The notes below the pieces were generated by a model, which was given only the letters and a program-made list of their open reading frames with translations, was not told the DNA's origin and made no database searches. A stretch of DNA of 64,000 nucleotides from Dipteris shenzhenensis (lineage: Eukaryota), in assembly GCA_047967505.1 (NCBI GenBank), contig CM106538.1. One strand, written 5' to 3'. Each line of letters opens with the position of its first letter. Positions within the stretch are counted from its first letter, which is position 1. Below are positions 25,896-49,527 of this stretch, in pieces. Made by a program: the position numbers and the translations under genes.

Positions 25896-28577
25896 ATGGG
25901 AGTGGGAGGGATGGCAGGGAGATCAGTAGAGCTAGTATTAGTCTGTTGCGCTACGATGATTATGTTGAGATGCTTGGGCGAGAGGCTGAATTTCAAGATG
26001 TTTACGGTGGACGAGATAGAGGATCTGAACTTCAAGGTCTCGTTAGACAACTACCCAGGGATGCAGGCCTTCATACTCGATAAATGGGTCATCAACCAAA
26101 CGTCGGGGCTGGTCGCTTCGCTCTGCTTCATCTCTGCTTCTCCGTCCTCCTCTAATAACTCTGCTTCCTCCTCTTACGTTCTCGCCGTCTGCTTATGGAA
26201 TGCAAAGGACGACGTATTCCAGCATTCTGCGGCTGCGCTGGTGCTGTGGATCGCCAATCGCCACAACCCCGTCTCAGGCAACTTCTCGCTCTCTTTCCAT
26301 AACGCCAACCTCGCTTTGCATCACGGCGACGGCACCTTAGCTTGGTCTTCCAACTCCCCCTCCCTCCCCCACGCCTGGTTGGACCTCACCGTCGACCCTC
26401 GCACTCCTCCTGGTCTCGGAAACCTCGCCATTTACAACTATGCTCATGGCGTTCGCTCTCCATTGCCGCTATGGCAGAGCTCTGATCACCCGTCCGACAC
26501 CCTCGTTCCCCTTCAAGCCCTCCACCCCGGCAGCCTGCTTGTCAGCTGGGCTTCTTCCACCGATCCATCCCCAGGCCCTTACAGCCTCGTTATGAAGCCT
26601 TGTGGCCTCGTCCTCTACTGGAGCTTCCCCCATCCCCTCCCTTACTGGGTATGGACCTACGACAATGGCGCCAACGACACTTCTTCTGCCAGGAGCTCTT
26701 GCCATCAAAACGTCTCCGCCGTGATCGATCCGGACGCTTCATTCCTTTGGCTAGGCCCCAGCAACATTACTCTTCCACACGACTTGTCTTCCGAGGATTA
26801 CCAGGCTTATGTTTCCTACTTCAACAGTCAGCAGAACTCCAACCTTAGCTTCTTGCGGCTGCAGCCAGATGGAAATCTGGTTGCCTACACGGCGGATATT
26901 GACCGCTTCATTCCCCGTTTGGATGTGTTAAATGGTGATTCTTGCTCTCTTCCGAGCTACTGTGGACCTTATGGAGTATGTTCCACCAACAACAAATCGC
27001 CATGTGATTGTCCTGCAAACTCTACTGGTTCTTTTCTGTCGCAGTTCTTCGACCATAATCAGGGTTGCCCGCCGACTCACAACCTTGCATCTTGCAACAG
27101 TACTGGCATTTCGCAACGCCAAACGTTCCTCCGGCTAATTGGGGTGGACTATTTCTCCAATAAATACTTGCCCACGTTGCTTTTCGCCACAGAAGAGGCT
27201 TGCAAGGATGAGTGCTTACGAAACTGTTCCTGTCTTGCCGCTTTTTGGCATACACACACTTTGTCTTGCTTTCACGTCCATCAAAATATGGGCAGTTTAC
27301 AAGGCTCCTTGAACGCTAGCTATCTAGCTTATCTGAAGGTAGTAGATGTTGCGGAATCAACCAGCACTTCCAACGCAAGCCCAATTGTAGCCGGACTAGT
27401 TTCGAAGGCAAGCCCAATTGCAACCGGAGTGGTTTCCAGTATAGCTGCCCTTCTTACTGCAGTGACTGCTTTGGGAGTTTTTATCTACAACAAACTGCGT
27501 GCCAATACTTTGGACGATGAAGAACCTTCCTTCGAGTCTATTATACCAGGGTTGCCTTCAAGATACACGTATGAATACCTTTCTTCGATAACAAATGGAT
27601 TTTCTGAGACGCTGGGTCGCGGTGGGTTTGGTAACGTTTATGCTGGCGTTCTTCAGGATGGGACGAGAGTAGCGGTGAAGGAGTTAGAAAGCTTGAGGCA
27701 AGGGAGCAAAGAGTTCAGAGCAGAGGTAGCAATTTTGGGAGCAATCCATCACTACAATTTAGTTCGTCTGGTTGGATTTTGTGCGCAATCCACACACAGA
27801 CTTCTGGTGTACGAGTACATGTCTAAAGGGTCACTGGATCAGTGGCTCTTTGGTAGCAGCCGGACAGAAATTCCATTGGATTGGCAGATAAGATTCAACA
27901 TAATCCTGGGAGCAGCACATGGCGTTGCATACCTACACGAAGGGTGCAGAGACAAGATCATCCATCTCGACATTAAGCCCCAAAACATTCTTCTTGACGA
28001 CGATTTTGTTGCCAAGGTATCCGATTTCGGGCTTTCGCGACTCATGTCCAGGGATGAGACTCATGTTGTAACTACAATGAGGGGTACGCCTGGTTACTTA
28101 GCCCCTGAGTGGCTTACGCATGGGGCTATCACTGAGAAATGTGATGTTTACAGCTTCGGGATGCTGCTTATGGAGATAGTCAGTGGGCGTAAGAACCTTG
28201 ACTATGCAGCAGAGACGGAACGAGCCTACTTTCCAGGGTGGGCATTTGACGTCTTAGCCTCAAAACAAGGAAGACTGGCTGATTTGACCAACGCCCAGCT
28301 TGACACGCCAGAGAAGATCATGCAAGCGACACGGGTGATGAACACAGCTTTCTTGTGTGTTTTGGAAGATCCTGACTTACGGCCGTCCATGGGAACAGTT
28401 GTGCGGATGCTCGAAGGTCGAGTGCCTGGTTTGGATCTTCACCGCTCACATGTATTTCAGAGTCTTCGGTTCGCAATCAGGTTGCCGTGTCCTTTAGCCC
28501 GGACTCTGCTTAACGAAGCATTCGGTAACTTGTTTGATGCTTCTAGTGAACCCTGTATCTCGACCCAGACTGGTTGA
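25896..28577 (+). CDS. G-type lectin S-receptor-like Ser/Thr kinase (SD-2-like, non-RD), intronless, 893 aa
   Basis: N-terminal hydrophobic signal; bulb-lectin (WIANRHNPV, GNLAIY, LWQSSDHPSDTL); EGF-like CSLPSYCGPYGVC; PAN CKDECLRNCSC; TM helix; kinase GRGGFG, VAVK, HLDIKPQN, DFG, GTPGYLAPEW. The ORF is uninterrupted. Confidence 0.96.
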   Translation: MGVGGMAGRSVELVLVCCATMIMLRCLGERLNFKMFTVDEIEDLNFKVSLDNYPGMQAFILDKWVINQTSGLVASLCFISASPSSSNNSASSSYVLAVCLWNAKDDVFQHSAAALVLWIANRHNPVSGNFSLSFHNANLALHHGDGTLAWSSNSPSLPHAWLDLTVDPRTPPGLGNLAIYNYAHGVRSPLPLWQSSDHPSDTLVPLQALHPGSLLVSWASSTDPSPGPYSLVMKPCGLVLYWSFPHPLPYWVWTYDNGANDTSSARSSCHQNVSAVIDPDASFLWLGPSNITLPHDLSSEDYQAYVSYFNSQQNSNLSFLRLQPDGNLVAYTADIDRFIPRLDVLNGDSCSLPSYCGPYGVCSTNNKSPCDCPANSTGSFLSQFFDHNQGCPPTHNLASCNSTGISQRQTFLRLIGVDYFSNKYLPTLLFATEEACKDECLRNCSCLAAFWHTHTLSCFHVHQNMGSLQGSLNASYLAYLKVVDVAESTSTSNASPIVAGLVSKASPIATGVVSSIAALLTAVTALGVFIYNKLRANTLDDEEPSFESIIPGLPSRYTYEYLSSITNGFSETLGRGGFGNVYAGVLQDGTRVAVKELESLRQGSKEFRAEVAILGAIHHYNLVRLVGFCAQSTHRLLVYEYMSKGSLDQWLFGSSRTEIPLDWQIRFNIILGAAHGVAYLHEGCRDKIIHLDIKPQNILLDDDFVAKVSDFGLSRLMSRDETHVVTTMRGTPGYLAPEWLTHGAITEKCDVYSFGMLLMEIVSGRKNLDYAAETERAYFPGWAFDVLASKQGRLADLTNAQLDTPEKIMQATRVMNTAFLCVLEDPDLRPSMGTVVRMLEGRVPGLDLHRSHVFQSLRFAIRLPCPLARTLLNEAFGNLFDASSEPCISTQTG

Positions 28578-28911
28578 AATCTCTACCGGCGAGTCTACTC
28601 AATACAAATTGTGATAACCAGTAACATCACCCGACGATGAGCTAGAAACCTACCTTGGTCAAGTCTCAAGTTGGGATCATAGGTTGCCTTTCATTGCAAG
28701 AAAAAGTTTTACTTACAACCCTCAATATTTGAATTGCTTTTTTAAGAATTTCCTAATTTTAAACCTTAGCATTGCTTTTAGTTGGGGAAATGTATTTCCT
28801 AGCATTTCATACTCTCTCTTTCATAGATCCATTGAACATGTGTATCTATTTAAATACCAGTTAAGTTTTGACATTGCCTTTAGTTGGATTTTTTTTTTGG
28901 GTGGCAATCCA

Positions 28912-28955
<44 letters not shown>

Positions 28956-29124
28956 ATTGGATAACATGTAAGCCCATGGCCTGTACATCAAAGGACATGT
29001 ATCTAGTCAACTTTAGATTACTCTAATAGTGGCACTCCTAGAGAAATGCTTTCAATCATAGAATTCCAACCACCATGCCACAAATCTTTCCACAACGGAA
29101 GGACTCAACAATTTCAACTAACTT

Positions 29125-30373
29125 TACAACCCAATGGAAACCACAAAAAAGCGCACCTGGCTCATTTTGCAACTAGAGTGATCTGCATAAGGTATGTCCC
29201 AAAAATCATGGCCCTATGGCAATGACCGCTACTAAAAATAGGACCTGAGATGCCTCAAAACATAGATATCACTACATAATCAGACTCACTAGGAAAATCT
29301 ACAAATATCACTCTTCTCCTAGAACTCTAGGATCCCAACCAATGAATGGGAAATGGGGCGTCAACCCTTGCAATTGACCAAAAAGTAAAACCTTAGGAAA
29401 CTTAGAAACCTTAGCAAAAAAAGCCACGTGGTAATTGTGTGGAACTTGTGCAGAAAATCCAAATAGAGGAGAAAACATTGACACAAACTTCTGGAATTCC
29501 CTGAATACTCCACCAAGTCATGCAAAAATTTGCAGAGGTCAGTATTAGCCCATCCTTGAATCACCAAAATAGACAGATTTGGAACTAGTGGTCTGAGCGA
29601 GCGGGTCCAGTAGACGAGCATCCGAACATAGGAAGAGATCAAAGAAGATGAAATGCTTGATTCCATAGCTTATTGTTGGTCTTGTTCCTTCTCCCAAGCT
29701 GGTTGGAAGCTGAATGGAGGCTTGGAAGTTGAACTAGAGCTCATGGGTCACGAAATAGCATCAGTTGCAACACAGATTCACAAAAATGGGCTCCTTCCTT
29801 GCTCAAGGCTTTCACAAAGCTTGTGAAATGAGCAACAGAGTTCAAAGCCTGGGAATGCTAGCACCCACGACATGATTCCAAAAGAAATTAGCTCACTCAG
29901 GCTCAAAAATCATCACAGGCTCCAAAAAATGACTTTTGCTTCCAAGAGAACCACCTACACCTTGCAAAACCACTCAGAGACTTCCAAAAATCACTTGTAG
30001 GCTTCTACAATGTTCTAATACCACTTGGGAAGCTCAAACAAGAAACCACATGCTTGCTCTGTCCTACCACAGAGCTGCAGTAACAGACAACATGCACACA
30101 CACGGGCTCAGCTAGACCATACAAAAGCCTCAGCCAAACCACCCAGGCTTTGATACCAATTGAGAGTGCTCTCAACAGAAGTGGAACGAAAGAGAGTGAG
30201 AGAGAGGGAGATCCAGACGAGAGCCATACAAGTTTTGTGGGTGCAAAGTACCCCAATCTTGTATGTCATCCATATATATATGTGTGTATGTGTGTGTGTG
30301 CGTGCATGTGTGTGTGTGTGTTTGAGTATTGTACATCATCGGGGTTAAGGAACAGTGGCATATAACCCCCACA
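29125..30373 (-). mobile_element. Truncated Copia-2 relative: one LTR, PBS and 5' leader only
   Basis: LTR tgagagtgctctcaac...acccccaca at 30161-30373; PBS-like gctttgatacca at 30147-30158; 29125-29360 aligns to the Copia-2 leader at ~21605-21845. No second LTR or coding sequence. Confidence 0.85.
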
Positions 30374-31353
30374 AAATCCACCCCCCCCAACAACACGAGA
30401 AAACTCTTCATAGAGGCCAGCCCAACTTGCTACCTCCAAATTGTTGGAGACGATGGAGAGGCCTCGTGCACAAATGTAGGACTCAAAATCCCCCCCCCAA
30501 ACAACAGGGAAAACTCTACTCAAAACCCTTAGCCCTTCGTCAATGTCTCCAGCAAATCCATAGAGCACAGAAGACTGTATTAGATAATTCGGGAAAAACC
30601 TAATTCCCAGAATGGCAGTTTTGGAAGAAATTGTAGCCTTTCTCCATGAAAAAATAGGAGGAATATGTGAAAATAGACTAGATTGCCATTCATGAAGTAT
30701 GTAATATCTACTACATTCTCAAATAATAAATAGAATATCAGTGTCTCAACTACGTTATCATCAAGAAAATAATAAAATTCGAAATCCATTTGAGTGAGAT
30801 TCATCTCGTGAGCCATAGTGGTGTTCAAAAACACCGTCATAATAGCTCTCTAGAATTTCCATTGATATTGAAACTCGCTTTATTGTGAGCATTCTCATTT
30901 GAATGCAAGATATGTAGTTGATGTAAAATCAATGGGCAATGACAAGCATTTAATGTAAAATTAGGTGGCAATGACAATCATTTATCGTGCACTTTCAACG
31001 GTTAGACTGACTAGCATGATTGTAAAAGGATAACTTTACATGTCATGTTTATTACTCATTGCGAAGGAAAAAATACACTTTAGGATGAAAACATAACAAC
31101 TTGTTGATGCACCATTGAAAGCCTTGAAATAAATCATGATTACAAAGAAACTCTCAATGCCAGCTTTGCACAATCCATTAGAAAGAATGGCATGAGGGAC
31201 ACTCCGTCAAACTCCATTATGAATGTAGTTATGAACATGTTTGCATATTATTCACACACAACAATTATGCACCAATTTACACAGCTAGAAAGAAAGTAGT
31301 AATTTCCATAAGTAATGATTGCACAAAGAAATACAATGTTATTATTCAAAACT

Positions 31354-31897
31354 CATTGTAGCTCCTCTCCTACATGTATATCATTTATGGATTCAATACA
31401 AATATGACCATATTCTGCAATATCTATGTTCATCATGGGGTCATACCAAGGTGGAAAGCTAGGAGAAAATACATAACTAACATTTGGCTTTGCATACGGT
31501 ATTTCCATTGCTGTTAATAAACCCTACCACATTGCCATATTGAACATCACCAACAATATGCACCATATCCTTCATAGGGATAGTAGGGTCCTCTTGGATG
31601 GAGTAGTTCTTTAGCCTTGGATGAACTTGACATAATTCCTTCCAGTCTCTGTAGGAGTACTTGTCACCTCCATAATAGAGAATAGTGGTCCCTATCTTGA
31701 TGAAGTCATGCACAAACAAGCCCAAGCCAACTAATGGTTGACTCATGCACCTCGAAAGTCACATTTTTGATCCAGAACACTTTGTTGATAGGGATAGGTA
31801 GCTTTGGTGGTCTGAATGGATCTCGTTCTGGTATGTACCTACTCAAGCATGATTTGAACGCATATCTCTCTACATCAAAAAAGACAATTCCAATTAC
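31354..31897 (-). pseudogene. SET-domain protein remnant (frameshifted)
   Basis: Manual translation across frameshifts: TFEVHESTI/GLGLFVHDFIKIGTTILYYGG...GNVVGFINS.../PNVSYV...GHICIESINDIHVGEEL, matching SET motifs GxGLF, FINS(H) and DI..GEEL. Confidence 0.78.
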
Positions 31898-32097
31898 CTA
31901 CAACAACAGTTATATAGACTTGAGATAAAATGAAAAAACACTTTGACATCTGTACCTACATGGAAATTATGCATTCTGTAGTTGGTTTATGTAGGCCTTA
32001 GAAATGTGTTTCTTGATATAGAGACCTTTGTACCCTAGGTCTATAGCCAATTGAGAAACTTGCATAGCATTCATGCTAGAGAGTTGTGGAGCATTCC

Positions 32098-33110
32098 TTA
32101 AAAGTCTTCTTTGGGATGCATTGAGTTCAAGCACCTAGCTATCACCACCATGGGTTGACTAGGTTGTACACCCTTTGGTTCTGTATTTTCACCTATAGCC
32201 CTCTCTCTTAGTTGATCTGCAAGAGGAAGATTTCTTGTTTTATATTCCATTCTTGACCATGCATGACTTTCCTCCCTCCATTCATCAATTACTTTCTGGA
32301 CAAGGTTGAAATCCTTATGCCCCTCCATCACAGGTAATTGTCCATAGCAATCATGCTGCGCACATCTTTAGCCTCATTGAGTTGTAGTAAGTAAGGCATC
32401 AACTCTCCTCTAAGTAGAGTATTATCATCCTTGTCTTGTACATCAAACGTTGAATAAAATATGCAATTTGATAGAGGGCTAACGCAAGCCTTGTATGGGG
32501 AGTCATCAACAAGGATTGTCTTTCTTGCATCACATCCAAATGCCTTTGAGATTTTTGCTAAGGGTCTGAACATTGCCTCAACACCAACCTTGTCGGGCCT
32601 ATTTATCCTCGTCTTACTATAAGTGTAGCATCCTTGCTGAGACCATATAACAAATAAAGGGAGGCTCTCATTTGCATAATTTTGTAGTCCTACCATATCA
32701 AGTACGTTATGCTCCATTGTAGTTGACCAGATACGTACATTAAATCTTTATAGCAAGATTTTAAGGAATTCTATGCACCCAAGATGAACAACCATATAAA
32801 TATTTTTGTCATGCATAATAGATGGATGTATTGGCGACTTGAATAGGTAGTGACTCAATAGCAAGCCATTCAAGTCTAATATGATTGTTATTCTTGGCAT
32901 ATCCAAAGAAATTGTATGTGGATATAGATCCAAATTCTCCTTGAAGTTGCTAGCTTTTGACTCATCGAAATTGTTAGGTGCTACGTTTTCATACATGTTT
33001 GCAACAACAATAAGATTATCTAGTCTTATCCCCAATGTTGAGATAGTATGTTCATCCATGTTCTCTTCTAAAAGTATAGGATTAATGATATTCCTTGCAA
33101 TTGTCTCCAT
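32098..33110 (-). pseudogene. FCP1/SCP-like (NIF, HAD-family) phosphatase remnant
   Basis: IILDLNGLL...GCIEFLKILL*RFNVRIWST...IWSQQGC...KTILVDDSPYKA. One in-frame stop at 32748 joins ORFs 32748-33110 and 32328-32717. Confidence 0.8.
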
Positions 33111-33345
33111 TTTTGTGTTATGTTTTCTTCTATACCCCCTGTATCGATCGCATCATTAATAGTCCCCATTTTGGATGGTATGTTGTCCTCTACATTGATA
33201 GTCCCCATTTTGGGTGGTATGTTGTCTGCTACAATAGCACCTGATGCACTCCTTGATGATGCCATGCTTCACAACAGCCTCTTCTTCATACTCATCATCC
33301 TCATCCTCATCCTCATCCATTGGTGTTATTCTCCAACTATTCGCA

Positions 33346-36300
33346 TGAGGTTGTGGACAATGGCACCAGTGCCATTCATTACATGGATTGAAGAGAATTG
33401 CACTTAGAGTGCCATTCCCCATTCTCCATGTGATGAATGTCAATAGTTCCATTCTACCCACCATAATTTGATTATTTGGAGAATGGCACCAGTGCTAAAC
33501 TTCACAACTTCTTATGATCTTTTGGAGAATGGTACTAGAGTCATCCTCCATGTAGACTTTTCACAAGATGTCAATAGCACTAATGCTAATGTTCATGTGA
33601 GTTTGTAGAGAGTGGCATTGATGCCATTATTCAGATACCAAGGTTGTCACGTGAGATTTTTCTCATAAAAAAATTGGAGGAACCTTAATAAATGATGATT
33701 AGAGATTGGTAAATGTTCCATTCCCCACAACATATAATGGTTGGACAATGGCACCAGTGCCATTCTCCACAACATCATATGATTATTTGAAGAATGTTAC
33801 AAGTGTTATTCTCTATTCTCCATGTGATGAATGACACTGGTGCCATTATCAACAACACCATATGATTATTTAGATAATGGCACCAGTGACATTCATCACA
33901 TGGATTTTTGAGGATGGCACCAATTCCATCCTCCATCCTCCATGTGATGAATGGCACCAATGTCATTCTCTAAGTAACCACATGATGTTTTGGAGAACGG
34001 CACCAGTGCCATTATCCTCAAATTCATTTGAGCACTAATGCCAATCTCAATGGGAGTTTGTAGCCATACTCCATGAGAGTATGTGAAGAATCCTACATGA
34101 GAGTTTGTGGATAGTGGAATTGGTGCCATCCTCCATGATGTTGGTTCCATTGTCCACAACAATTCTATTCTCCACAACACATGATGGTTGGAGAATGGCA
34201 CCAGTGCCATTCTCCACAATATCATATGATTATTTGGAGAATGTCACAGTGCTATTCTCTGCTCTCCATGTATTGAATGGCACTAATGTCATTCTCAACC
34301 ACATCATATGATTATTTGGTGAATTGCACTAGTACCATTTCCCACAACACCATCAGACTTTTTGGAGAATGGCACCACTTACATTCATCACATGGATTGT
34401 GGAGGATGGTACCAATGCCATTCTCCATTCTCCATGTGATGAATGGCACTGATGCCATTGTCAAGTAACCTCATGATGTTTTGGAAAATGGCACCAATGC
34501 CAATATCCTCAAATTCATCTGTGAAATAATGCCGATCTAAATGGGAGTTTGTGGAGAATGGCACCCATGCCATACTCCATGAGAGCTCGTGGAGATTGGC
34601 AGTGGTGTCATCCTACATGACCTTGTGGATAATGACACTAGTGCCATTCATCCCATGGATTGCCAAGAATGGAACAAGTTCCATTCTCTAGATATCAAAG
34701 TTATCCTACCAGTGGAACACAAAACATGATATCAGGGTTATCACATTAGAGTCTTCACAAATAATATGTATAGGAACCTAACACATGATGACTATAGAAT
34801 GGTACTAATGCCATTGGTGACAACACTTTATGATTATTTGGAAAATGGCACCAGTGACATTCATCACATGGATTGTGGAGGATGGAACCAATGCCATTCT
34901 CCATTCTCCATGTGATGAATGGAACTCGTGCCATTCCCCAAATATTCATATAGTGTTGTGAACAATGGCACCAGTGTCATTCTCTAAAACTACATCTAAT
35001 CTTTTGGTGATAATGGTCCACTCATGATGGTAGGATCATAGTTCTAGTGTCATTTTCCAAAAAATCATTTGATGTTGTGTAGAATGCCCATTATCATGCT
35101 AGTGGAACATAACACATGATGGCTAGAGAATGGCACTGGTGCCATTGTCCAAAAAATCATATGATATTATGGAGAATGGCACCAGTGTCATTCATCACAT
35201 GGATTGTGGAGAATGGCATCAGTGACAATATTCATGCTCCATGTCATGAATGGCACTAACATCAATCTCCATTACATCATATGATTCTTTGAAGAATTGG
35301 CACTAGTTCCATTCTCCACAATTTCATCTGATGACCTTGAGAGAATGCCAGAACAACATATCTCCATGTGAGTTTGTGGAACCAGTGACAATTACCACAT
35401 GGATTGTGGAGGATGGCACCAATGCAATTCTCTATTCTCCATGTGATAAATGGCACTGATGCCATTCTCCAAGTAACCACATGCCAGTTTTGGAGAATGG
35501 TACCAGTGGCATTCTCCTAAAATTCATCTAAGAACTAATGCCAATCTCAATGGGAGTTTGTGAAGAATGGCACCAGTGCCATTCCATGAGAGTATGTGGA
35601 GAATCATGCATGAGCATTTGTGGATAGTGGAATTGGTTCCATCCTACATGATGTTGGTTCCATTCTCCACAACACGTGATGGTTGGAGAATGGCAGTGGT
35701 GCCATTCTCCACAACATCATATGATTATGTTGAGAATGTCACTAGTTCTATTCTCTATTCTCTATGTGTTCTATGTGTTGAATGGCAATGATGCCATTCT
35801 CAACCACATCATATGATTATTTGGTGAATGGCACTGGTACCATTGTCCACAACACCATCTGATTATTTGGAGAATGGCACTAGTAACATTCATGACATGC
35901 ATTGTGGAGGATGGAACCGATTCTATTCTCCATTATCCATGTGATGAATGGCACTGGTGTCATTCCCCAAATATTCATATAGTGTTGTGGACAATGGCAC
36001 CAGTACCATTCTCTAAAACTACATCTGATGGTAGGATAATAGTACTAGTTTCATTTTCCAAATAATCATCTGATGTTGTGTAGAATGTTCATGATCCTAC
36101 TAGTGGAACATAACACATGATGTGAGGTTATCACATTAGAGTCTTCCCAAATAATATGTATAGGAACCTAATACATGACAAGTATAAAATGGTATTGGTG
36201 CCATTGTCCACAACACCATCTTATTATTTGGAGAATGGCACCAGTGCCATTTATCACATGGATTGTGGAGGATGGAACATGCCATTCTCCATTCTCCATT

Positions 36301-38614
36301 TGATTAATGGTAGTGGTGCCATTCCCCAAGTAACCACATGATGTTTTGGAGAATGGCATTAGTGCCATTCTCCTCAAATTCATCTGACCATAATGCCAAT
36401 CTCAATCGGAGTTTGTGAATAATGACAATGGTTCCATACTCCACGGGAATATGTGGAGAATCCTGCATGAGAGTTTGTAGATAGTGAAATTGGTGCCATC
36501 CTCCATGATGTTGTCAACAATGGTACTAGGCTCATTCAACTATGGATTTAAGAGGATGGCACCAGTGTCATTCTCCAGGTGCCAACGTTGACACATGAGA
36601 GTTTTATCATAGGAAATTTGAGAGGAACCTAACACATGATGGTTGGAAAATGGTAGTAGTTCCATTCTCCACAACAGAGCTATTCTCCACAACACATGAT
36701 CATTCGAGAATGGCACCGGTGCCATTCTCCAAAACATCATATGACTATTTGGAGAATGTTACCACTGCTATTCTCTGTTCTCCCTGTGATGATGCCATTC
36801 TCAATCACATCATATGATTATTTGGCCAATGGCACTGGTACCATTGCCCACAACACCATTTGATTATTTGGAGAATGATATTAGTGACTGTCATCACATG
36901 AATTGTGGAGGATGGCACCAATGCCATTCTCCATTCTCCATGTGATGAATGGTACCAGTGTCATTCTCAAAGTAAACACATGATGTTTTGGAGAATGGCA
37001 CCAGTGCCATTCTCCTCATATTCATGAGGACTAAATCCAATCTAGATGGGAGTTTGTGGAGAATGGCACCGGTTGCCATACTCCATTAGAGCAAGTGGAG
37101 ATTAGCAGTGGTGCCATACTACATAACCTTGTGGAGAATGACGCCAGTGCCATTCATCACATGGATTGTCAAGAATGGCACAAGTTCCATTTCCAGATGT
37201 CAAACATAACAAATGATGGTTGGAGAATGGCAATGGTGCCATTGTCTAAAAACTCATATGATATTATGGAGAATGACACAGATTCCATTCTCCATAGCAC
37301 ATGATGGTTGGAGAATGGCACCAGTGCCATTCTTCACAACATCATATGTTCGGGGGGGTCACTATGTATAAACCCTCTATATCACGTGCATTCAAGGCCT
37401 ATATTTAAAGTCCCTTATCTGTAAAAAATTTCATTAATAAAATGTACCCCTTTCCTATACAAATCTGTAAATTTTTTCCAAAACTATTTTAAATAGTCTC
37501 TTATGTATATTTATTTCTATAAATTTTAGAAATTAAAAAAATCCTTCTGTTGAACTCACGTGATAGGGTTACATATGATGAGTGACCCCCCCGAGATCAT
37601 ATGATTATTCCGAGAATGTCACGAGAGCTATTCTCTATTCTTTATGTGATGAATGGCACTAATGTCATTCTCAACATCATATGATTATTTGGTCAATTGC
37701 TCTAGTACCATTGCCCATAAAACCATTTGATTTTTTGAAGAATGGCACCAGTGACATTCATCACATGGACTGTGGAGGATGGCACCAATGCCATTCTCCA
37801 TTCTCCATATGATGAATGGCACTGATGCCATTCTCCTCAAATCCATCTAAGGACTTATGCCAATCTCAATGGGAGTTTGTGGAGAATGGCACCGGTGCCA
37901 TACACTATGAGAGCTTATGGAGATAGCCAGTGGTGCCATCCTACATGACTTTGTGGAGAATGACACTAGTGCTATTCATCACATGGATTGCCGAGAATAG
38001 CACAAGTTCCATTCTCCAGATGTCAAAGTTATTCTACCAGTGGAACACAAAACATGATCTTAGGGTTATCACATTAGAGTCCTCCCAACTACTATGTATA
38101 AGAACCTAACACATGATGACTATAGAATTGGTACTAGTGCCATTGTCCATAACTCTTTGTGATTATTTGGAGAATGGAACTAGTACCATTCATCACATGG
38201 ATTGTGGAGGATGGAACCAATGCCATTCTCCATTCTCCATGTGATCAATGGTACTGGTGCCATGTCCAAATATTCATATAGTGTTGTGGGGACAATGGCA
38301 CCAGTGCCATTCTCTAAAACTAAATTTGATCTTTTGGTGATAATGGTTCTAACTCATGATGGTAGGATAATGTTACTCGTGTCATTATAATCATCTGATA
38401 TTGTGTAGAATGTCCATTATCATGCCAGTGGAACATAACAAATGATGATTGGAGAATGGCACTGGTGCCATTGTCCAAAAAATCCAAGTGATGAATGACA
38501 TTGGATTGAGAAGAATGGCACACATGGATTGAGGAGAATGCCGCATATGGATTGAGGAGAATGACACCAATGCCATTCTCCATTGTCCATGTGATGAATG
38601 TCATTGGATTGAGG
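33346..38614. repeat. Degenerate array of the palindrome GAGAATGGCAC-CA-GTGCCATTCTC (block A)
   Basis: Dozens of full and half copies embedded in longer recurring units. Confidence 0.92.
37349..37595 (+). mobile_element. MITE copy 1 (247 bp)
   Basis: TIR ttcgggggggtcact / agtgacccccccgag; 8-bp TSD ATCATATG at 37341-37348 and 37596-37603; AT-rich core. Confidence 0.92.
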
Positions 38615-38951
38615 CACTACTACACACGGATCCTATTGCGATGTTTATGTACCGATGTTTAGCGCCCGCTTAGCGTTAATCGTCGGTATGAAAAGCGGGT
38701 TTCCTAAATCGTCGCTATATAGCGACTGTTGCTAAAAGTCGCTATATAGCGACACTGATACAAAATATTATAGCGACGTTTTTACAGAGAGGTTTTTTTT
38801 TAAATATAGGCCTTAAAAGTTAGTTTTTTCCAATGACAAATTTTTTTAAATTTTCATACATGTTTGAGCTCATAGAGAATAAAAAAATGAGAGCATGTAC
38901 ATCAAGCCTTTGAAGCTCATATATTCATGTCCAAGTTTGAGATGAGAAAAA

Positions 38952-41900
38952 TCAAATAAGAGCATTTACATCAACTGTTTCATCTTGAGCCAAGTCTAAG
39001 GCGCCAAGCAAGTCTATCTCCAACTCTATACCGAGTTGATCTCCTATATCATCATCGTACTCTAGCATCGTACATTCACCTAAAAGTATTTGATCATCTT
39101 CTTCAATAAAGCTTAAGTGTGGTGATTGATCTTGATGATTGTTGTCTTCTTTGTCAATATCGTGATCTCCATCCTCCTCCCGTGCAATGTCATTATGCGC
39201 ATCTTCCTCTTGGCTCATATGGTGATCTACATCTTCTTCGCTAGATTCATCAATTGGATCCGGCATTGGTAGTGGCATCTCCATATCCACATCTCGATCT
39301 TCAAAAATTTGCTTACTTCGTGGTGCAACTTGGATCATGTACCACCATCTTGGATCAAAACGATCCGGATGAAAAACCACCTATATTGAAGATGGGTGCC
39401 AAATGTCGTCAATTATATATATGAAATTATGCTCAAGTACATGTATCAATGGACTTTAAAAACGAAAGCTTCGACTAATTAAATCATTAGTATGCACCTG
39501 CTCATAGTGCTCGGGAAGAACAAAAGTATCACTTTCATCGGTCCAATGTTTGGTGGAGTCTATTGCAAAGAGACCGCTACTATCTTTTCTCACTGTTGCA
39601 TGGGGACCCTTGTAAGTAGTTCTAAACCATTTTACATCAAGAATGAAAATAATAAATCGTCTGAAATCAATTTCATAGATGTCGCGTATGTTCCACAATA
39701 ATCCAACTGTGAGGAGAGAAGATTGGTATCTGAAGCACTTGCTCGGCTATCTTGTGTGAAGTTAGCCATGACTCCACAATCATACGTGACTCTCTTTGAA
39801 TCGATGCGTTCCACGAGAAAATGTCGTCCATATGACCATAATGCACTGTACTTTTTGTACTGTAAAAGAGCATCATTAAAACAATGAAGATACATCTATT
39901 TTATAGCATATATTGCCACAAATAATTACTTAATTACGTCAAGAGGTAAGAAACTTACATGCACCATACATCCAGATGATAACTCTCGCTCGCACTTGTT
40001 TATTGTCTCTCCATCATGTTCGGCTTTACGTAGAGCTAGTTGTAGCCAATCAAGTGACATGTGAGTAGGGAGAAGAGCCAGATCTTGTGGATATGGTTGT
40101 GATCGCCTGTACATTACTCTGAATCTCGTCCTTGCATTTATTCTTTCTGCTTTGGCCACTTCATATCTCTCAATCCACTTCTGCATCTCAGGGCTATTGA
40201 GGATACAAAACTTATTGAATTTCTCCATTTGCTCTTCGCTCATCTTTCTTTCAATCCCTTTTCCTTGGGGAATCTCGCCAACAATGCGATCATCATCCTT
40301 GTTGTGCCAAGCTTGCGGCATATCAGGATCCGTGGATGCAAGAAACTCTGTGATATATACTAATGACTCTTGCACAAGCCATCCCTCTGCCATGCTTGCT
40401 TTCGGTCTTGCTCTTTGTCTTACAAACCCCTTTAAAGTTTTCATAAACCGCTCGAGAAAAAACATCCATCGACTATGAACGGTACCTACTATAGCCACCT
40501 CATCAACTATGTGCACAAGCAAGTGGACTTGAGTTGTCATAATGCTCGAGGGAAAGTGCTTCTCAAGCAAGCATACGGCTTCGATGGATTCCACCCTAGC
40601 CTTCTCGATGCTTGATATAGAGATCTCTTTTTGAGATATCCACCTATTTCACATGTCCATGCATATGTAAGATATTTGAGATATCCACCTATTTCACATG
40701 TCCATGAAGAAAATACATAATGCGATTTGATAGTAAGCATACCTCACAATACCACAGATCTTGAATATAGCATTTCTAACATCTTCTTGTAAGCACTCTT
40801 TTATTGTAATTGGGAGGATGAACTATCAAAGCAACAATGAAGTCATGTCAACAATATAACATAATAATAATTGCGCTAACGCATCACGATTATCGGTACA
40901 CTAATTCTACTTAGAATACCTGTAAGACCTTGTGCTAATCATGGGACTTGAGGCCACTAAGCTTATTGTCCTTTGAAAATTCTCCTTTCAAGCAATGCAT
41001 GTACCCTGTTGGTGTTTGAAAAGAGGCAATGTCTGCCTTGACCGCTGCCTCCTCCCTCGTAAAGAGGATCCATGTTGCTTTTGGGAGGACAACTTTTCCC
41101 GAAGCATGCACTTGGGGCCACAAATGAGACATCCTATTCATAGCATGCAAGTCTTCTCGCACTCCTCTCGAGTCCTTGGAACCAACCAAGTGTGCCCAAA
41201 TAGTAGCCCCCACATTCTTGAAGATATGCATGGGATCCAAGAGATGATTGATTTGTAACTGACCCCAATAAGGAAGCTCGTGAAAGATCGATAGCCTCTT
41301 CATACCAGGAGGAGGTTCCTCTCCATTCGCCCTCCAAGCTTGAATCCAATCACTTGCCTTCAAATATGATGGTGGTGGATCAAGCTGACCTCCATGTGCG
41401 AGATGGTCGAGCGGAAGGTATCGAGCATGACCTTCATAAACATTTTTTCTCATATGTTTGGAGTAGCGTGCAAGCAATTTCAGAGCCGGTCCACAAACAG
41501 GACAAGCATGGTACCCACTTGTAACAAGTCCTGCACGCGTGCATGAATGTGTTAGTACAAGAAAGCATGCAAAAGAGAGTAAAAAAAGCATAATCCCTCA
41601 TTGTACATGTAAAGACACAACCACGTACCTGCGCACTCTCCATATCCTGGGTAGTCATGCATGGTCCACATCAAGATACCCCTGACCAAAATATCATTGG
41701 TATGTCTAGGAGCTCTGGAAATATCAAAGACCTGCACTCCTCTCCATAATATCTGTAACTCCTCTATCAAAGGTGCCATGTACACGTCCATGTTTTTTGC
41801 CTTGTACTTTCCTAGCACAAGTAGTGCAAGCATGAGGTGTCCCTTTTTTATTGTTAGCCATGGTGGGATATTGTAATTCACCACAACTATGGGCCATGTC

Positions 41901-43011
41901 GACCAAGATGTCGAGCGTAACCCGAAAGGATTCACGCCGTCCATGGCTAGCCCAAGATGTAAGTTGCGTGGCTCCCTCGCAAAGTCCGGCCATTGATTAT
42001 CTATGTGCTTCCAAGCTGCACAATCTGCGGGAATCCTCAATGTGTGATCAGTGGACCGATGAGATGCATGCCATGTCATCAACTCTGCTATGGATTTGCA
42101 TCAAAACATGTGTTGTATTCTTGCAATGATGGGAAAGTGTCTTAAGACCTTTACCGATACTTCAAGTCATCTCTATATCGTTGTTCCCCACACTTTGGAT
42201 AACTAGCCAAATCTCCATGCTCACGATGAAAGAGAATACAATCATTACGGCAAGCATGGATGGTATCATAATCCATACCCACCGTTGTTAGCATCTTTTT
42301 CGCTTCATCTCTTGATGCGGGCATGGTATTTGGTGCAGGCAACATCTTCTGGAGCAACCTATGACAAAGACACTGTCCAAATGATGATTCTCAAAACAAA
42401 CAATATCCAAATAATGAGTCAAATTAATGCAAGGGCTAACCTTATTAAGGCCGAGACACTTGTATCCGACCACCCATACTGTACTTGTAGATTCAAGATT
42501 GAGAGACAAGCATGTAGTTTAGACATCCTAGCACCCTCGTACAATTGTGTTGATTGCAACTCTCGCATTTTGACCTCAGACTCTGACATCACGTGTACGT
42601 GGGATGTAGTGCTCCTAAAAATGGAATCCATCATGTCGACCATACCCTCATCGTCATCCGGGAGACTATAGTCTTGCTGAAAGTGAGAAGGTATATGTGT
42701 ACCCTCGTCACCCTCCTCATCCTGTTTTAAGATTTCGTGTAAATAGAAGATCTTCTATTTCCTGGTATACAATAAGATTGCGAACTTAAATAGCTTTGAC
42801 TTACCGATGATCCATCAACATGTGCAACACCAACAGGGGGTACTGGTTCCGGCTCCTCCCCATACATCCGCAAGTGGTGCATGATAATACGATGTTGATG
42901 TCGTACTTCTCGCTTGCAATGAGTGCAATGATAGTATAACCTCTCCATAAGCCACTTCGTGCTCCCGGGCGTTGGCGCATCATTGAACGAGCTTCCACTC
43001 GTCCCTTCCAT
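38952..43011 (-). pseudogene. CACTA TnpD-type transposase (Transposase_21, DUF4218, DUF4216-like), multi-exon, disrupted
   Basis: IHACRNDCILF, LAMDGVNPF, WTMHDYPGYG, LDPMHIFKN, LSGLKSHD*, HLLVHIVDE..GTVHSRWMFFLERFMKTLK, FVLPEH. GT-AG introns, stops and frameshifts. Confidence 0.93.
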
Positions 43012-43894
43012 CTACACTTATAAAATCACAACATAAGCATGAAGAGGAGATATTAACAGTTATAAAATAGCATGTTTGAGCTTCTTTTGATGCCACATCA
43101 AAAAAGTGACTGTAAGCGTCGCTATATAGCGACGTTTTCCTCTGTTCTGTCACTATATAGCGACGTTTTTAATTAAAAACGTCGCTATATAGCGATGAAT
43201 AAGCGTCGCTATATAGCGACGCCGCTGTGGGTTAAAACCCAAAACACTAAACGCACGGCGTTTTGTTCATACTATTCCCTAATCTCTCAAGTAAGCAACC
43301 CAATATCTCCTCCCACCTATTTTTGACGACCTCCCACCTATTTCAAGCAACCTCCCACTCTATTTTCCACTCCTCACCCTTTCCTACCTCTTGTACTCCC
43401 TCTCTATCCTTTTCCCTCTTTGGTTTCTTGAAAGGAAGTTCTTCAAGAGGTGAGTTTGTTTCAACAATGTAGGTTGTTTGTTTGTTAGCTTTAGTTTTGT
43501 GAGTGTTTCTTCTTGTATTGCTAAACCTGTAAACTAGTTTTCATGCTTGTTTTGAAAGGATTGAAACAAAAAACGAGATTTCAAGAAAGAAAGAAAACTC
43601 ACCTCTTTTTTTTGTATTTCTCTTCCTTCTCTTTCTCCTTGTCTCCTCAATCTCCTCCTTTCCTTGTCTCCTCAATCTCCTCCCTTCAAGAAGTTGCTTT
43701 TGTAATCTCCTCCTTCCAGTAACATCTTATTTGAAAAAATGGGTTGTTTTCTCTCTTTTGTAGGGCCAGTCCACTACACCGAGCGGGACATACTATTTTA
43801 GGTAAGTGCTTCCTCTTTTTTCCATTTATTATTTTTGTTATTTGCATTGGCCTACAGCTAGCGCCTTAAGCGCTAGCTGCAGTGATGGGTGCCT

Positions 43895-46580
43895 CATGCT
43901 TATGCTTCTCTCATTCTCTATTTCCGCATGAGCTGAGCTTATGCGGACCTCTTTCCCCCTTCTCTATTTCCCCCTTCTCTCATTCGCATAAGCTCATGCT
44001 CATGCATGAGCATAAGCATGAGCTTATGCTTAAGTTTCCCCCTTCTTTATTTCTCTATTTCCGCATAAGCTTATGCTTATGCATGAGCTTATGTGGAAAT
44101 AGAGAATGAGAGAAGCTCATTCTCTATTTCCGCATAAGCTCATTCTCTATTTCCACATAAGCTCATGCTCTATTTCCACATAAGCTCATGCTTATGCATG
44201 AGCTTATGCGGAAATAGAGAATGAGAGAAGCATAAGCCATTCTCTATTTCCGCATAAGCTCATTCTCTATTTCCGCATAAGCTCATGCTTATGCTTCTCT
44301 CATTCCCCCTCATCTCTTTCCCCCTTCTCTATTTCCCCCTTCTCTCATTCGCATAAGCTCATGCTCATGCATGAGCTTATGCTCATGCATGAGCATGAGC
44401 TTATGCTTAAGTTTCCCCCTTCTTTATTTCTCTATTTCCACATAAGCTTATGCTTATGCATGAGCTTATGCGAAAATAGAGAATGAGAGAAGCTTATGCT
44501 TCTCTCATTCTCTATTTCCGCATAAGCTCATGCTTATGCATGAGCTTATGCGGAAATAGAGAATGAGAGAAGCATAAGCTCATGCGGAAATAGAGAATGA
44601 GAGAAGCTTATGCTTCTCTCATTCTCTATTTCTGCATAAGCTCATTCTCTATTTCCGCATAAGCTCATGCTTATGCATGAGCTTATGCGGAAATAGAGAA
44701 TGAGAGAAGCATAAGCATGAGCTTATGCTTCTCTCATTCTCTATTTCTGCATAAGCTCATTCTCTATTTCCACATAAGCTCATGCTTATGCTTCTCTCAT
44801 TCCCCCTCATCTCTTTCCCCCTTCTCTATTTCCCCCTTCTCTCATTCGCATAAGCTCATGCTCATGCATGAGCATGAGCTTATGCTTAAGTTTCCCCCTT
44901 CTCTATTTCTATATTTCCGCATAAGCTTATGCTTATGCATGAGCTTATGTGGAAATAGAGAATGAGAGAAGCATAAGCTCATGCTTATGCTTCTCTCATT
45001 CCTTAGGGGGGTCACTCATCATATGTAACCCTATCACGTGAGTTCAACAGAAGGACATTTTTAATATCTAAATTTTACAAAAGTTAATTTACATAAGGGA
45101 GTATTTAAAACAATTTTGGGAAAATTTACAGATTTGTAGAGAAAAAGGGTACATTTTATTAATGAAAAATTTACAAATAAGGGATTTTAGAAATAGGTCT
45201 TGAACGCACGTGATATAGAGGGTTTGTACATAGTGACCCCCTTGAGTCTCATTCTCTATTTCCACATAAGCTCATTCTCTATTTCCGCATAAGCTCATGC
45301 TTATGCATGAGCTTATGCGGAAATAGAGAATGAGAGAAGCATAAGCTCATGCTTATGCTTCTCTCATTCTCTATTTCCGCATAAGCTCATTCTCTATTTC
45401 TACATAAGCTCATGCTTATGCATGAGCTTATGCGGAAATAGAGAATGAGAGAAGCATAAGCTCATTCTTCTCTCCTTCTCTCCTTCCACATAAGCATATG
45501 CTTCTCTCCTTCTCTATTTCCACATAAGCTCATTCTCTATTTCCGCATAAGCTTATGCTTATGCTTCTCTCATTTCCCCTCATCTCTTTCCCCCTTCTCT
45601 ATTTCCCCTTTCTCTCATTTCCCCCTTCTCTATTTCCCCCTTCTCTCCTTCTCTATATTTGCATAAACTCATTCTCTATTTCTGCATAAGCTTATGCTTA
45701 TGCTTCTCTCATTCCCCCTCATCTCTTTCCCCCTTCTCTATTTTCCCCTTCTCTCATTTGCATAAGCTCATGCTCATGCATGAGCATAAGCATGAGCTTA
45801 TGCTTATGCTTATGCTTAAGCATAAGCATAAGCTGATTCTCATGCTTATGCTCATGCATGAGCATGAGCTTATGCTTAAGTTTCCCCCTTCTTTATTTCT
45901 CTATTTCCGCATAAGCTTATGCTTATGCATGAGCTTATGCGGAAATAGAGAATGAGAGAAGCATAAGCTCATGCTTATGCTTCTCTCATTCTCTATTTCC
46001 GCATAAGCTCATTCTCTATTTCTGCATAAGCTCATGCTTATGCTTCTCTCATTCCCCTTCTCTATTTCTGCATAAGCTCATGCTTATGATTCTCTCTTTC
46101 CCCCTTCTCTATTTCCCCCTTCTCTCATTCTCTATTTCCGCATAAGCTTAATAAGGGAAATAGAGAAGGGGGAAAGAGATGAGAGGGATTGAGAGAAGCA
46201 TAAGCATAAGCTTATGCGGAAATAGAGAATGAGCTTATGCAGAAATAGAGAATGAGAGAAGCATAAGCTCATTCTCTATTTCCGCATAAGCATAAGCTTA
46301 TGCGGAAATAGAGAATGAGCTTATGCAGAAATAGAGAATGAGAGAAGCATAAGCATGAAAATAGAGAATGAGCTTATGCAGAAATAGAGAATGAGAGAAG
46401 CATAAGCTCATGCTTATGCTTCTCTCATTCTCTATTTCTGCATAAGCTCATTCTCTATTTCCGCATAAGCTAGCTTATGCTTCTCTCATTCTCTATTTCT
46501 GCATAAGCTCATTCTCTATTTCTGCATAAGCTTATGCTTATGCTTCTCTCAATCCCTCTCATCTCTTTCCCCCTTCTCTA
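43895..46580. repeat. Palindromic minisatellite (gcataagctcatgc / ttctctatttcc / ggaaatagagaa) inside CACTA ORF2 intron
   Basis: Motifs occur in both orientations; perfect 43-bp stem 44491-44533/44538-44580. Confidence 0.92.
45002..45246 (-). mobile_element. MITE copy 2 (245 bp), opposite orientation to copy 1
   Basis: TIR cttaggggggtcact / agtgacccccttgag; 8-bp TSD TCTCATTC at 44994-45001 and 45247-45254; the interior is the reverse complement of 37349-37595. Confidence 0.92.
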
Positions 46581-46763
46581 TTTCCCTTATTCTCTCTAAC
46601 TCTTATTCTTTGTTTCCCTCTTCTTCCTCTTCTCTTTCCTTTCCCTCTTCTTTCCCTCTTTCCTTTCCCTCTTCTTTCCTTTCCCTCTTCTTTCTTCTTG
46701 CCTATGCCTATGCTTATGTTTGTTTTTTTGTTTTTTGTTTTCGTGTTTGTGTCTATGTTAGAC

Positions 46764-48247
46764 ATGGGATCACGTCACTCATCTGACGAGTACAGACAGC
46801 ATTGCAGGAGGAGAGCTCACGATCTATATGCTCTACAGGACTTTGATTCCTCTCAGACGACTACCCCGAGGACTATACCCCTGGTCCGACTCCTCTCGGA
46901 CCTAGCACTACGACTACTCCTGGTCCGACTCCTCTTCCACGTAGCACTGCGACTACCCCTCGGGGAACTCCTTTGCTAGCCACGCATGGCTTTGTCAGGA
47001 GTCCCGATGAGTTTGTAGTGTAGATGAGCGATGAGGAGGCAGTGAGATTCTTCTCTCTGCTCTCTTAGAGGACCTCAACAATTCCCTCCCCTACACTGAC
47101 GGGTGGACGTACTGCCCAGCCATCCCCTCGCACCCCTTTGACCGCGGGATCATCACCTGCGCATGCCTCTCGCAAGGGAAGGAAGAGTAGGACAGGTGGC
47201 TCATGTTGTGCTGACTCAGGGGATGTAGACGAGTCAGCACACTCATGCTCCTTTAGGTCTCCACTTGGTCTGGAGACACAGTATCAGTCAGGTCCCTTTC
47301 CCTCTCCTACTCCCACTGCTACTCCTCGCTCCGAAAGCACTCGCGTAGCTTCCACTCCTTCAGACTCTGCTACCGTCAGTCCTCCTTACTCATTAGGGGA
47401 TCTCTCCTATCAAATCACATCTGCTGGAGAGATAATAGAAGATAAAAAGGGCAAAGCAGTGATGGCCGCCATGAGGAGGTTGATGAGTCATCACTTCAAG
47501 AGCGTCATAAATACCGATTGGTGGTATCAAGATGCCCAAAAGAAGCAGGCGGTGATCGATGAGTTAAAATAAAGATACCCTAATCCGCCAAATGTGGAGT
47601 TTAATGACGATTATATGTGAGAGTGCATGGGTTTGGTCCTGAAGCATCGTAGATCAACCTTGCGTACTTCCATCACAAAGGGGTTGGCTAAACCCAGCTG
47701 GGCAGACAAAGCTGATTGGAAGTACTTCAAGAAGCAACGTAGGGACCATCTCGAAATGTTTGAGGGTCAGAGGAGGGCTGCGAAGAGATGGCTGGACGTC
47801 GTAGGTACTCCACACTTTGGTGCAGGCGGATGGTATGCGTTCGAGGCAACCGTGGTAAGTCTACTTCTTTTCATTTAATGTATTGTTCTATTTGTTTTAC
47901 TACATATTACATGCACTTTAGCTAACACATGCATTTCGGATAGGAACAAAGCCATGGTTCATTGAGCAAGAGGCAATGGGAGCGACGGTCGATTGGGTTG
48001 AGGTGGCTGCTCGCATGGTATAAGTTTACTCCTACTTGTAATCTCACTTTTCAATTTAAGTTCCAATCTAATTTTCGATTTATATGGTTCACTCTTAGGG
48101 TCAAAGCTCAAGCGTCCCATCATCGGAGGCGAGCGATTAACAGGGCCAAGGATCAGATGCAAGTGCGAGGATGAGGGAGAAGACGCAGGTGTCGAGGACC
48201 AAGGAACAGGCCAACAAGACAAGGATGATTCAGATTCGGATGAGTAG
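46764..48247 (+). pseudogene. CACTA ORF2 (TnpA/Ptta-like), multi-exon, disrupted
   Basis: Ser/Pro-rich N-terminus, then WWYQDAQKKQAVIDELK*...LKHRRSTLR...KPSWADKADW...HFGAGGW; splice signals at ~47855, 47943, 48018 and 48098; acidic tail. Confidence 0.65.
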
Positions 48248-48744
48248 TAGTGGTAGTGGCATTTTGTATATCTACTCGTTTGAGCAATTTTGTATCGCCC
48301 TTTTGAAAGGGTAATTTTGTTACAAACAATGTTGTATATGTCCGACATGTATATGCTTTTGTTGCTCATCATTTCACAAGAACGATTTCGTATCACCCTT
48401 TTCGCAAGGGAAATTTTGTTATAAAAAACTTTTTTTGTAATTACAAAAAAAAAAAAGGATTAGTGGGGCTAAACAGGGCCAAAAGGAAGCCCTGTTTAGC
48501 CCCACTAACCCTTTTTTTTTACTTCTGTTAATCGTCGCTATATAGTGACGTTTACCAGTGTCACTATATAGCGATGATTAACAGTGTCGCTATATAGCGA
48601 CGGTTGCCAGTGTCGCTATATAGCGACGGTCCTTTTCTGATGCTTTTAGCGACACTTATAGCGACGTTTGCACCCGTGAAAAAAAAAAATTTAATGTAAA
48701 AAGCGTCGGTATTTTCGTCGGAAAATGGCCTATGCCTTGTAGTG

Positions 48745-48900
48745 AGGAGAATGACACCAGTGCCATTCTCCATTCTCCATGTGATGAATGGCATTGGATT
48801 GAGGAGAATGACACACGTGGATTGAGGAGAATGGCACCATTGCCAATCTCCATTCTCCATTTGATGAATGGCATTGGTGCCATTCTCCAAATATTCAAAT

Positions 48901-48949
<49 letters not shown>

Positions 48950-49482
48950 GGTCAAAACCTTATCCATATGATGATAACCAATGAACTGTTTTATGGCCAA
49001 ATCTTTTTCTTATGGTGGAAATCAATTGCATGAATGGCATTGGTGCCATTCTTCAAATATTCATATGATGTTGTAGAGAATGACGCCAGTTCCATTCTCC
49101 AAACTTCAACTCATATAGAATTCAAATGATTTCCTGTATGTCAATGTTGTCACACATGATGGTTAGAGAATGGCACTGGTGCCATTTTCCACAGCACCAT
49201 ATGATTATATTGCAACTGGCACCTATGCCATTAATCACAAGGATTGAGGAGAATAGCACCAGTGCTATTCTCCATTCTCCATTTGATGAATGGCATTGTA
49301 TTGAGGAGAATAGCACACATGGATTTAGGAGAATGACACTAGTGCCATTCTCCCTTCTCCATGTGATGAATGGCATTGGATTGAGGAGAATGACATACAT
49401 GAATTGAGGAGAATGGTACCAATGCCATTCTCCATTTTGCATTTGATGATTGGCATTGGTGCCATTCTCTAAATATTCATAT

Positions 49483-49527
<45 letters not shown>

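Follow-up and report, generated by a model that had tools for sequence, protein, structure and literature searches.

What is a phosphatase-like domain doing directly upstream of a SET domain in repeat-rich plant DNA, and what carries the pair? In the window analyzed here, a 64,000-nucleotide stretch from Dipteris shenzhenensis with a lectin receptor kinase and copia, gypsy and CACTA elements, the two domains lie on the minus strand, and an initial annotation had proposed that they might form one spliced fusion gene inside a transposon. We document the domains and their order, their recurrence, the clade that they form, selection on their relatives, the associated palindromes and the decay of the copy, and conclude that positions 31353 to 33330 are probably a dead, 5′-truncated copy of an accessory-gene cassette belonging to a multicopy mobile element family in a land plant. 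In the direction of reading, the copy and its flank comprise the following.

33111-33330, minus strand: remnant of an acidic low-complexity (poly-DE) linker, frameshifted, recognized by translation and abutting the palindrome array
32358-32888, minus strand: NIF/HAD phosphatase-like domain (LDLNG, WST, FRP and DDSPYK) with an in-frame TAA at 32750-48 (Pfam NIF, E 1.9e-13)
32129-32357, minus strand: last part of NIF (the YGQLPV helix) plus linker, in which the frame breaks twice; tblastn matches of homologues carry on in the next frame
31967-32128, minus strand: small helical domain, conserved at the C terminus of the NIF protein, with TAA 31969-67 at its end (family HMM, E 9.4e-9)
31898-31955, minus strand: predicted GT-AG intron, 58 nt long, which begins shortly after the NIF stop codon (from sequence; relatives have donor-like sites at or just after the stop)
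31353-31897, minus strand: small stand-alone-type SET gene or exon (GLGLF, GNVVGFINS and GEEL; tblastn and family HMM)
30591-31352, minus strand: noncoding 3′ portion of the repeat, in which TRF finds a 32-bp tandem repeat (30921-30984)

The NIF domain matches Pfam PF03031 over residues 75 to 251 of the translation of 33110-32331 (X at one stop; E 1.9e-13) and carries the LDLNGLL and VDDSPYK motifs noted initially; the accompanying label "FCP1-like" holds at the level of the Pfam NIF family and no further. The SET domain is also real, as the tblastn match to the SET of the related locus L008 indicates (E 1.6e-20, 43.75% and 37.8% identity), and the family HMM finds it at E 7.5e-24 and 3.3e-10. 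Pfam alone scores it weakly (E 0.082, compared to 3.9e-9 for the L008 SET), and a word-based protein search with the broken window SET gave no match. An ATG scan found no in-frame ATG before the SET core of the window. The proposed splice signals, GT at 31955 and ttgtAG at 31898, are present at those positions. The "short linker" described between the domains does lie there, but it contains the conserved helical domain (32128-31970, E 9e-9), followed by TAA at 31969-67. Homology of the acidic remnant at 33111-33330 is assigned by composition and position, acidic linkers preceding NIF in intact relatives.

Both genes are interrupted by stops and frameshifts, on which the initial annotation was silent, and the window copy of the pair is nonfunctional. 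Its breaks include the in-frame TAA at 32750-48 and frame changes near 32346, within 32110-32190 and near 31734 and 31490, and the SET tail has further stops. By profile HMM, the ParB/methyltransferase gene found upstream in relatives is absent from 31353-33330. Contigs from all three DNA runs cover the copy at 80 to 99% identity. One of these runs assembled to only 1.95 Mb, which suggests that repeats are what was assembled; contig depth was rejected as a measure of copy number. The NIF stop at 32750-48 reads CAA in contigs of all three runs, indels relative to the window occur at 32346-7 and 32158-32190 and change the frame at two breaks, and the NIF frame holds 22 differences (8 silent and 14 not, with one a stop in the contig's copy) among the 40 of 152 differences listed. 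These copies are decaying independently of one another. One contig is gapless across the tail, intron and pre-SET region (31740-32113), with 31 differences. Contig matches end at 30591, towards a retroelement remnant, and loose contig ends lie at 30591 and 30900; the sequence at 29125-30317 is similar to the copia element at 16.9-22.8 kb.

The arrangement recurs on the opposite strand of the same window.

10778-12915, plus strand: second, diverged and internally deleted copy with a ParB-like tail, methyltransferase-like exon, NIF end, stop, intron and SET remnant (P0009 hits and HMMs)

Here the hits of gene model P0009 span 10778-12244 (best E 2e-99), and HMMs of the ParB part, the methyltransferase part and SET match at E 2e-14, 1e-69 and 1.8e-5, respectively. 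A NIF profile search returned 150 relatives, the closest of which carry the same small helical tail as 32128-31970, and nine of 80 metagenome loci matched at 37 to 49%. Eight of the nine were treated as cassette loci; L006 is host-like, and L007, which is partial, was left out of the trees. Multiple diverged copies therefore exist: two in 64 kb, contigs in three of three runs and the eight cassette loci. The intact-looking L008 encodes ParB-like and methyltransferase-like exons, an acidic linker, NIF with the helical tail, a stop, an intron and SET, which starts about 400 nt past the NIF stop. Both upstream parts precede NIF in L004, L008 and L009 (the methyltransferase part only in L005), and the ParB/methyltransferase part also precedes it in gene models P0009, P0012 and P0025. 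SET follows NIF in one of the eight cassette loci (L008), though several run on for 0.5 to 2 kb; in L001, a weak SET tail occurs upstream only (E 0.02). The second window copy, L008 and one contig repeat the NIF-then-SET order, in agreement with the original placement of the pair in a multicopy, repeat-associated family, and the pairing is no accident. A full cassette would thus contain a ParB-like domain, a helical region, a beta-class amino-methyltransferase-like domain, an acidic linker, NIF with its helical tail, a stop, a 3′ intron and a small SET. A PHROGs search with 15 proteins gave nothing under E 0.02, and the Atlas clusters nearest to one cassette protein are from Streptophyta. In L003, a second, very divergent NIF gene with a DLEG motif lies downstream of the first (3219-4037).

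The cassette NIF domains form one clade, with 19 rows and SH-aLRT support of 97 in a tree of 62 of the 140 domains and with 15 rows and 100/99 support in a second tree of 36 of them. Grouping of the window NIF with the host-like genes, a label that we infer, was rejected (p-AU 2.7e-6; the group was named after the first tree was seen, and long branches were flagged). The clade adjoins long host-like proteins within the plant DxNG family, and the window domain descends from the plant DLNG/DVNG NIF family. Estimates of dN/dS were 0.16 to 0.36 in the 15 of 28 pairs that could be measured (dS was saturated in the other 13), and the NIF family has evolved under purifying selection. Judged by copies, dN/dS and tree, the pair is neither single copy nor neutral nor nested among host genes, the outcome that the initial annotation had set against its own reading. 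P0024 and P0060, which have the cassette helical tail, branch beside the tailless host-like P0002, P0003, P0017, P0022, P0023 and L006, and these genes might have been domesticated from the cassette.

FCP1/SCP CTD phosphatases have a DxDx(T/V) motif I, and a BRCT or dsRNA-binding domain enters the definitions of FCP1/CPL/SCP. The window NIF shares the PF03031 fold motifs with the plant DLNG/DVNG NIF (HAD) family and with FCP1/CPL/SCP, but unlike the latter, it has DLNGL in place of DxDx(T/V), no BRCT or dsRNA-binding domain and an extra helical tail. DLNG had been singled out as a special variant. It is general in the plant NIF family, and an element-specific motif was rejected: in the 140 domains, motif I was DLNG in 53, DVNG in 46, DING in 16 and SLCG in 5, and none of the 129 parsed motifs was DxD. 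The SLCG subfamily (5 of 140) has lost even the first Asp. From established HAD chemistry, a domain without the second Asp would be expected to catalyze weakly or to bind phosphopeptides.

The SET family (20 hits among 56 candidates of 101 to 324 amino acids) is small, with INSS instead of NHS throughout and a GEELLCYY motif that is kept in relatives and broken in the window. SET lysine methyltransferases typically have the NHS motif and a C-terminal tyrosine. The Atlas neighbors of the SET family are small viral (including Nucleocytoviricota) and algal SETs (0.96 to 0.97). MLL1, vSET and SETD8 match its model fold about equally well, at E values of about 3e-5 to 2e-4 and a TM of about 0.4 by query; PDB sequence searches were uninformative, with E 1.2 as the best SET match. 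The domain upstream of NIF in relatives and in the second window copy has the fold of a beta-class amino-methyltransferase (Z 9.4 to 10.4, rmsd 3.6 to 4.8 Å over 153 to 190 residues, from a model with pLDDT 56), with MTA1c, M.MboIIA, M1.HpyAVI, EcoP15I Mod and CcrM as best matches, and a second fold comparison agreed. This PF01555-like assignment is by fold: Pfam gave no hit for the domain, whose catalytic motif IV is altered and has no DPPY-type motif. Its dN/dS was 0.10 to 0.18 in the four pairs above 50% identity and 0.48 and 1.03 in two poorly aligned pairs (22 to 26% identity), and four pairs were saturated. The ParB-like assignment, based on mostly phage Atlas neighbors at 0.81 to 0.82 (under 0.9 and treated as leads only) and a shared SGxH motif, is a weaker call than the methyltransferase fold.

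The surroundings of the pair bear on its carrier, which is likely a DNA transposon.

33300-38614, no strand: left part of an array of ~26-bp palindromes (GGAGAATGGCAC-YR-GTGCCATTCTCC), 34 palindromes versus 3.0 expected
38615-48744, no strand: CACTA/EnSpm element of its own, with Tnp2 encoded on the minus strand and a second gene on the plus strand, which has inserted into the array; CACTA...TAGTG ends, AGG on both sides
48745-52500, no strand: right part of the same array, past the CACTA insertion, 30 palindromes versus 4.0 expected
55200-61700, plus strand: another array, at 55.2-59.8 kb, whose commonest palindrome is the same and which a copia element interrupts; beyond it come an ORF without assignment (59847-60449) and the decayed remains of a DUF7869 gene

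The CACTA element, with its CACTA end at 38615, TAGTG end at 48744 and 3-bp AGG target duplication, is self-contained and encodes Transposase_21 (E 1.3e-47) and DUF4218 (E 3.8e-25). The NIF-SET pair is therefore not inside it, contrary to the original placement inside a transposon, if that means the Tnp2 element: positions 31354 to 33110 lie 5.5 kb outside its ends, and CACTA was rejected as the carrier. The element has divergent genes and, at 43.9-46.7 kb, long internal hairpin-rich tandem repeats; GTCGCTATATAGCGAC repeats occur near both ends and at 43.1-43.2 kb, and part of its transposase also matches window positions 443-857.

The NIF gene adjoins the left part of the palindrome array, which is 72% identical to the right part over 525 nt. 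Five of the eight cassette loci (L002, L003, L004, L007 and L009) are enriched in palindromes as well; L001, L005, L008 and the surroundings of the second window copy show no enrichment. Cassette subfamilies differ in the motif. The DUF7869 gene beside the second array (E 7.5e-5 and 2.3e-14) is a candidate for the carrier transposase of NIF-SET; its DNC..NKN motif presumably reflects a resemblance to Sola-like transposases, and no mention of DUF7869 was found in the literature searched. The two arrays are only 65 to 70% identical outside the motif and may therefore represent related families rather than one element. Between the SET flank and the DUF7869 end, no terminal inverted repeat beyond an 18/20 match was found. 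This match is a short GGTGTT..AACACC palindrome at both outer flanks (30818-30837 and 62020-62110, 18 of 20 nt) and hints only weakly at shared ends; the left end appears to be truncated. None of the cassette copies could be linked to a transposase, a terminal repeat or a target duplication; the contigs of the relatives are only 1.6 to 7.6 kb long.

Could the pair nonetheless encode one protein? The NIF and SET frames lie only about 70 nt apart in the window, a spacing kept in another copy (a contig), but TAA 31969-67 precedes the donor at 31955, and a join from 31955 to 31898 would be out of phase and meet a second stop immediately. Ten GT-AG pairs with donors inside the helical tail would give an open join, but each cuts this conserved domain, 0 to 9 residues beyond which 14 homologues end (9 of them used in building the HMM). 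The stop is at the same place in five of six loci and in the second window copy: in L001, L002, L003 and L008 a donor-like GT follows 0 to 3 nt after it, in the second window copy one follows after 5 nt, and L004 has the stop without a clear donor. The frame of L009 does run into its donor without a stop, but one comes six codons into the next predicted exon. Of 151 NIF homologues, none matched the SET profile below E 0.5, and a NIF search among longer proteins, a weak one that missed known relatives, gave two hits from 333 candidates, neither with SET. Many homologous proteins resemble unspliced ORF calls, so a spliced fusion could be hidden. With the stop before the intron and the homologues lacking SET, the single spliced fusion enzyme proposed initially is nevertheless unlikely, and we give it little credence. 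We predict instead that NIF and SET each form a product of their own, from a shared transcription unit or from neighboring ones, with SET either an ORF of its own (~160 to 180 amino acids) or an alternative last exon. A variant within this preferred explanation, possible but doubtful, makes NIF and SET alternative last exons of one gene, either module being spliced behind the ParB-methyltransferase protein. Among predicted splice sites (all sites here are predictions), the acceptor of the NIF exon has phase 1 in four of the eight cases examined (L002, L008, L009 and the window), has phase 0 in one and is missing at the threshold in three, the L008 SET acceptor is also phase 1, phase-1 donors lie near the ends of upstream ORFs, and the window SET lacks an ATG. 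Many SET relatives, however, have a methionine just before the core, reading in phase 0 gives the second window copy one too, and the window SET has no acceptor above threshold. Methylase and SET are not one protein in gene models P0009, P0012 and P0025; exon skipping may join the two.

The origin of the genes must likewise be weighed against capture of host genes by chance, decaying neutrally as Pack-type cargo, or a host multigene family without a role in an element. The NIF clade does sit inside the plant DLNG/DVNG family beside host-like genes, stops occur in both window copies and in the contig copy of run X1, and no transposase is linked. Against this stand open frames kept at 40 to 60% protein identity, dN/dS well under 1, a multigene order that recurs and palindromes that are specific to subfamilies. 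Among solved structures, moreover, no host protein is close to the SET in sequence (best E 1.2), and the Atlas clusters nearest to it consist of small SETs from viruses or algae (0.96 to 0.97). We regard a host origin of this kind as rather improbable. The viral neighbors raise another alternative, that the genes are left over from a giant DNA virus that became endogenous: SET, NIF and ParB-methylase genes are all known from such viruses or phages, Nucleocytoviricota are among the SET neighbors, and the ParB-methyltransferase neighbors (0.81 to 0.82, leads only) are mostly phage. This is scarcely credible for genes with spliceosomal-type introns and a plant-type NIF: scans of viral contigs found no SET relative and four NIF relatives at only 30%, and no viral core gene was seen among the ORFs scanned. 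An element-borne cassette remains the preferred reading.

Transposon cargo of this kind has been described elsewhere. The DNA-methyltransferase-like gene in intact relatives makes the cassette resemble the additional genes with which certain transposons of algae and oomycetes may control their own silencing. Giant Plavaka elements of Bostrychia carry PAG2 (methylase plus SET) and a ParB-like PAG3 beside inverted-repeat arrays, and self-modification by these genes is a proposal of the same source, which also cites SET capture by Helitrons and HarbingerS (10.1101/2025.02.11.637652). PAG2/PAG3 and the cassette would have in common putative N6-adenine methylase, SET and ParB-like cargo beside inverted-repeat arrays, which the present cassette has in five of eight loci, and the Plavaka cassette moves between transposable element superfamilies and has mostly degenerate copies, a further likeness (10.1101/2025.02.11.637652). 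In Plavaka, a single protein holds methylase and SET, and the partner of ParB is a putative 2OG oxygenase (10.1101/2025.02.11.637652). The present cassette instead links ParB to methylase-like and NIF domains and keeps SET apart, and no oxygenase was found. An alternative-exon SET form would parallel PAG2, the methylase-SET fusion of red algae. The present host is a land plant, no Plavaka transposase was recognized among the window ORFs scanned, the relatives' contigs being too short to show one, and the likeness is one of domain anatomy.

As cited in PMC12730594, Phytophthora HarbingerS and MuDR families have a SET accessory gene, which shares with our reading a SET gene as DNA transposon cargo; the passages on these families name no NIF or ParB-methylase, and no Harbinger or MuDR transposase is linked to the cassette here. 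VANC and its tandem targets (PMC5735166) offer another comparison, since VANDAL elements also have subfamily-specific short motifs arrayed in their noncoding parts, as expected if a cognate protein binds them. However, no VANC-type Pfam match was found among the proteins scanned, and the cargo here consists of enzyme folds. The red-algal Plavaka accessory cassette is the better analogue in anatomy. ParB-linked eukaryotic methylases, with inactive ones in DIRS1, are also on record (PMC4738411). By anatomy, the cassette would work like these systems, and its superfamily is left unassigned. What is new here is a land-plant version of a known kind of transposon cargo with a phosphatase-like module. 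No phosphatase-like module on a transposon was found in the literature searched, most subscription journals and Repbase Reports being outside its scope, and "SET domain," "phosphatase," "ParB" and "fern" do not occur in the main text of 10.64898/2026.08.24.746577.

An anti-silencing role is plausible by this analogy. The ParB-like protein would bind the palindromes of its own family and bring the SET and NIF modules to the chromatin of the element, where SET, NIF and the methylase-like domain would mark, bind or shield local chromatin and polymerase, and the element would thereby stay transcribed. Some modules may bind or shield rather than catalyze, given the altered catalytic motifs (methyltransferase motif IV, NIF DxN and SET NSS). 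We offer this self-targeting mechanism, drawn from anatomy, selection and analogy, as a tentative proposal that falls just short of an even prospect. Few counter-silencing systems encoded by plant transposons are known, namely, VANC, TnpA and the AtMu1 transposase (10.64898/2026.08.24.746577; PMC5735166), and the cassette would carry over to land plants what is seen in red algae and oomycetes, with a phosphatase-like module added. Enzyme folds, a candidate DNA-binding domain and the family's own palindromes make the proposal directly testable, as to which protein, which palindrome and which mark. A bolder reading, which we consider doubtful, is a new land-plant lineage of large DNA transposons, maybe with DUF7869 transposases, carrying a selected self-targeting chromatin kit for anti-silencing. 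The kit would comprise a ParB-like palindrome reader and, by splicing or cotranscription, a methyltransferase-like domain, a host-derived CTD-phosphatase-like module and a virus-like SET, and the host-like NIF genes of the sister clade may have been domesticated from it. If true, anti-silencing would act on histone or DNA marks and on RNA polymerase II phosphorylation together.

Several other features of the window were recorded. The 3′ end of the lectin receptor kinase, with its flank, is duplicated directly at 28242-29124 and 62704-63636 (93.9%), and the duplicates thus bracket the whole array region; at 62485-62703 lie short pieces in scrambled order, together with 38 bp of array sequence in inverted orientation. 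A young, internally deleted copia element lies in the second array (56856-59494), with 98.9% identical LTRs and an ATGCT target duplication. At 49909-51461, a 487-bp unit is repeated 3.2 times at 98% identity, through very recent expansion or as an assembly artifact. A MITE-like insertion of ~240 bp, bounded by GGGGGTCAC ends, is present twice, in opposite orientations (37350-37595 and 45005-45240). ORFs or remnants at 8636-9151, 13238-14013, 52766-53400 and 59847-60449 have no notable Pfam match, and those scanned have no PHROG match; we take the last to resemble a Tnp1/En-Spm accessory domain. By eye, 14400-14670 looks like a decayed sugar-transporter exon.
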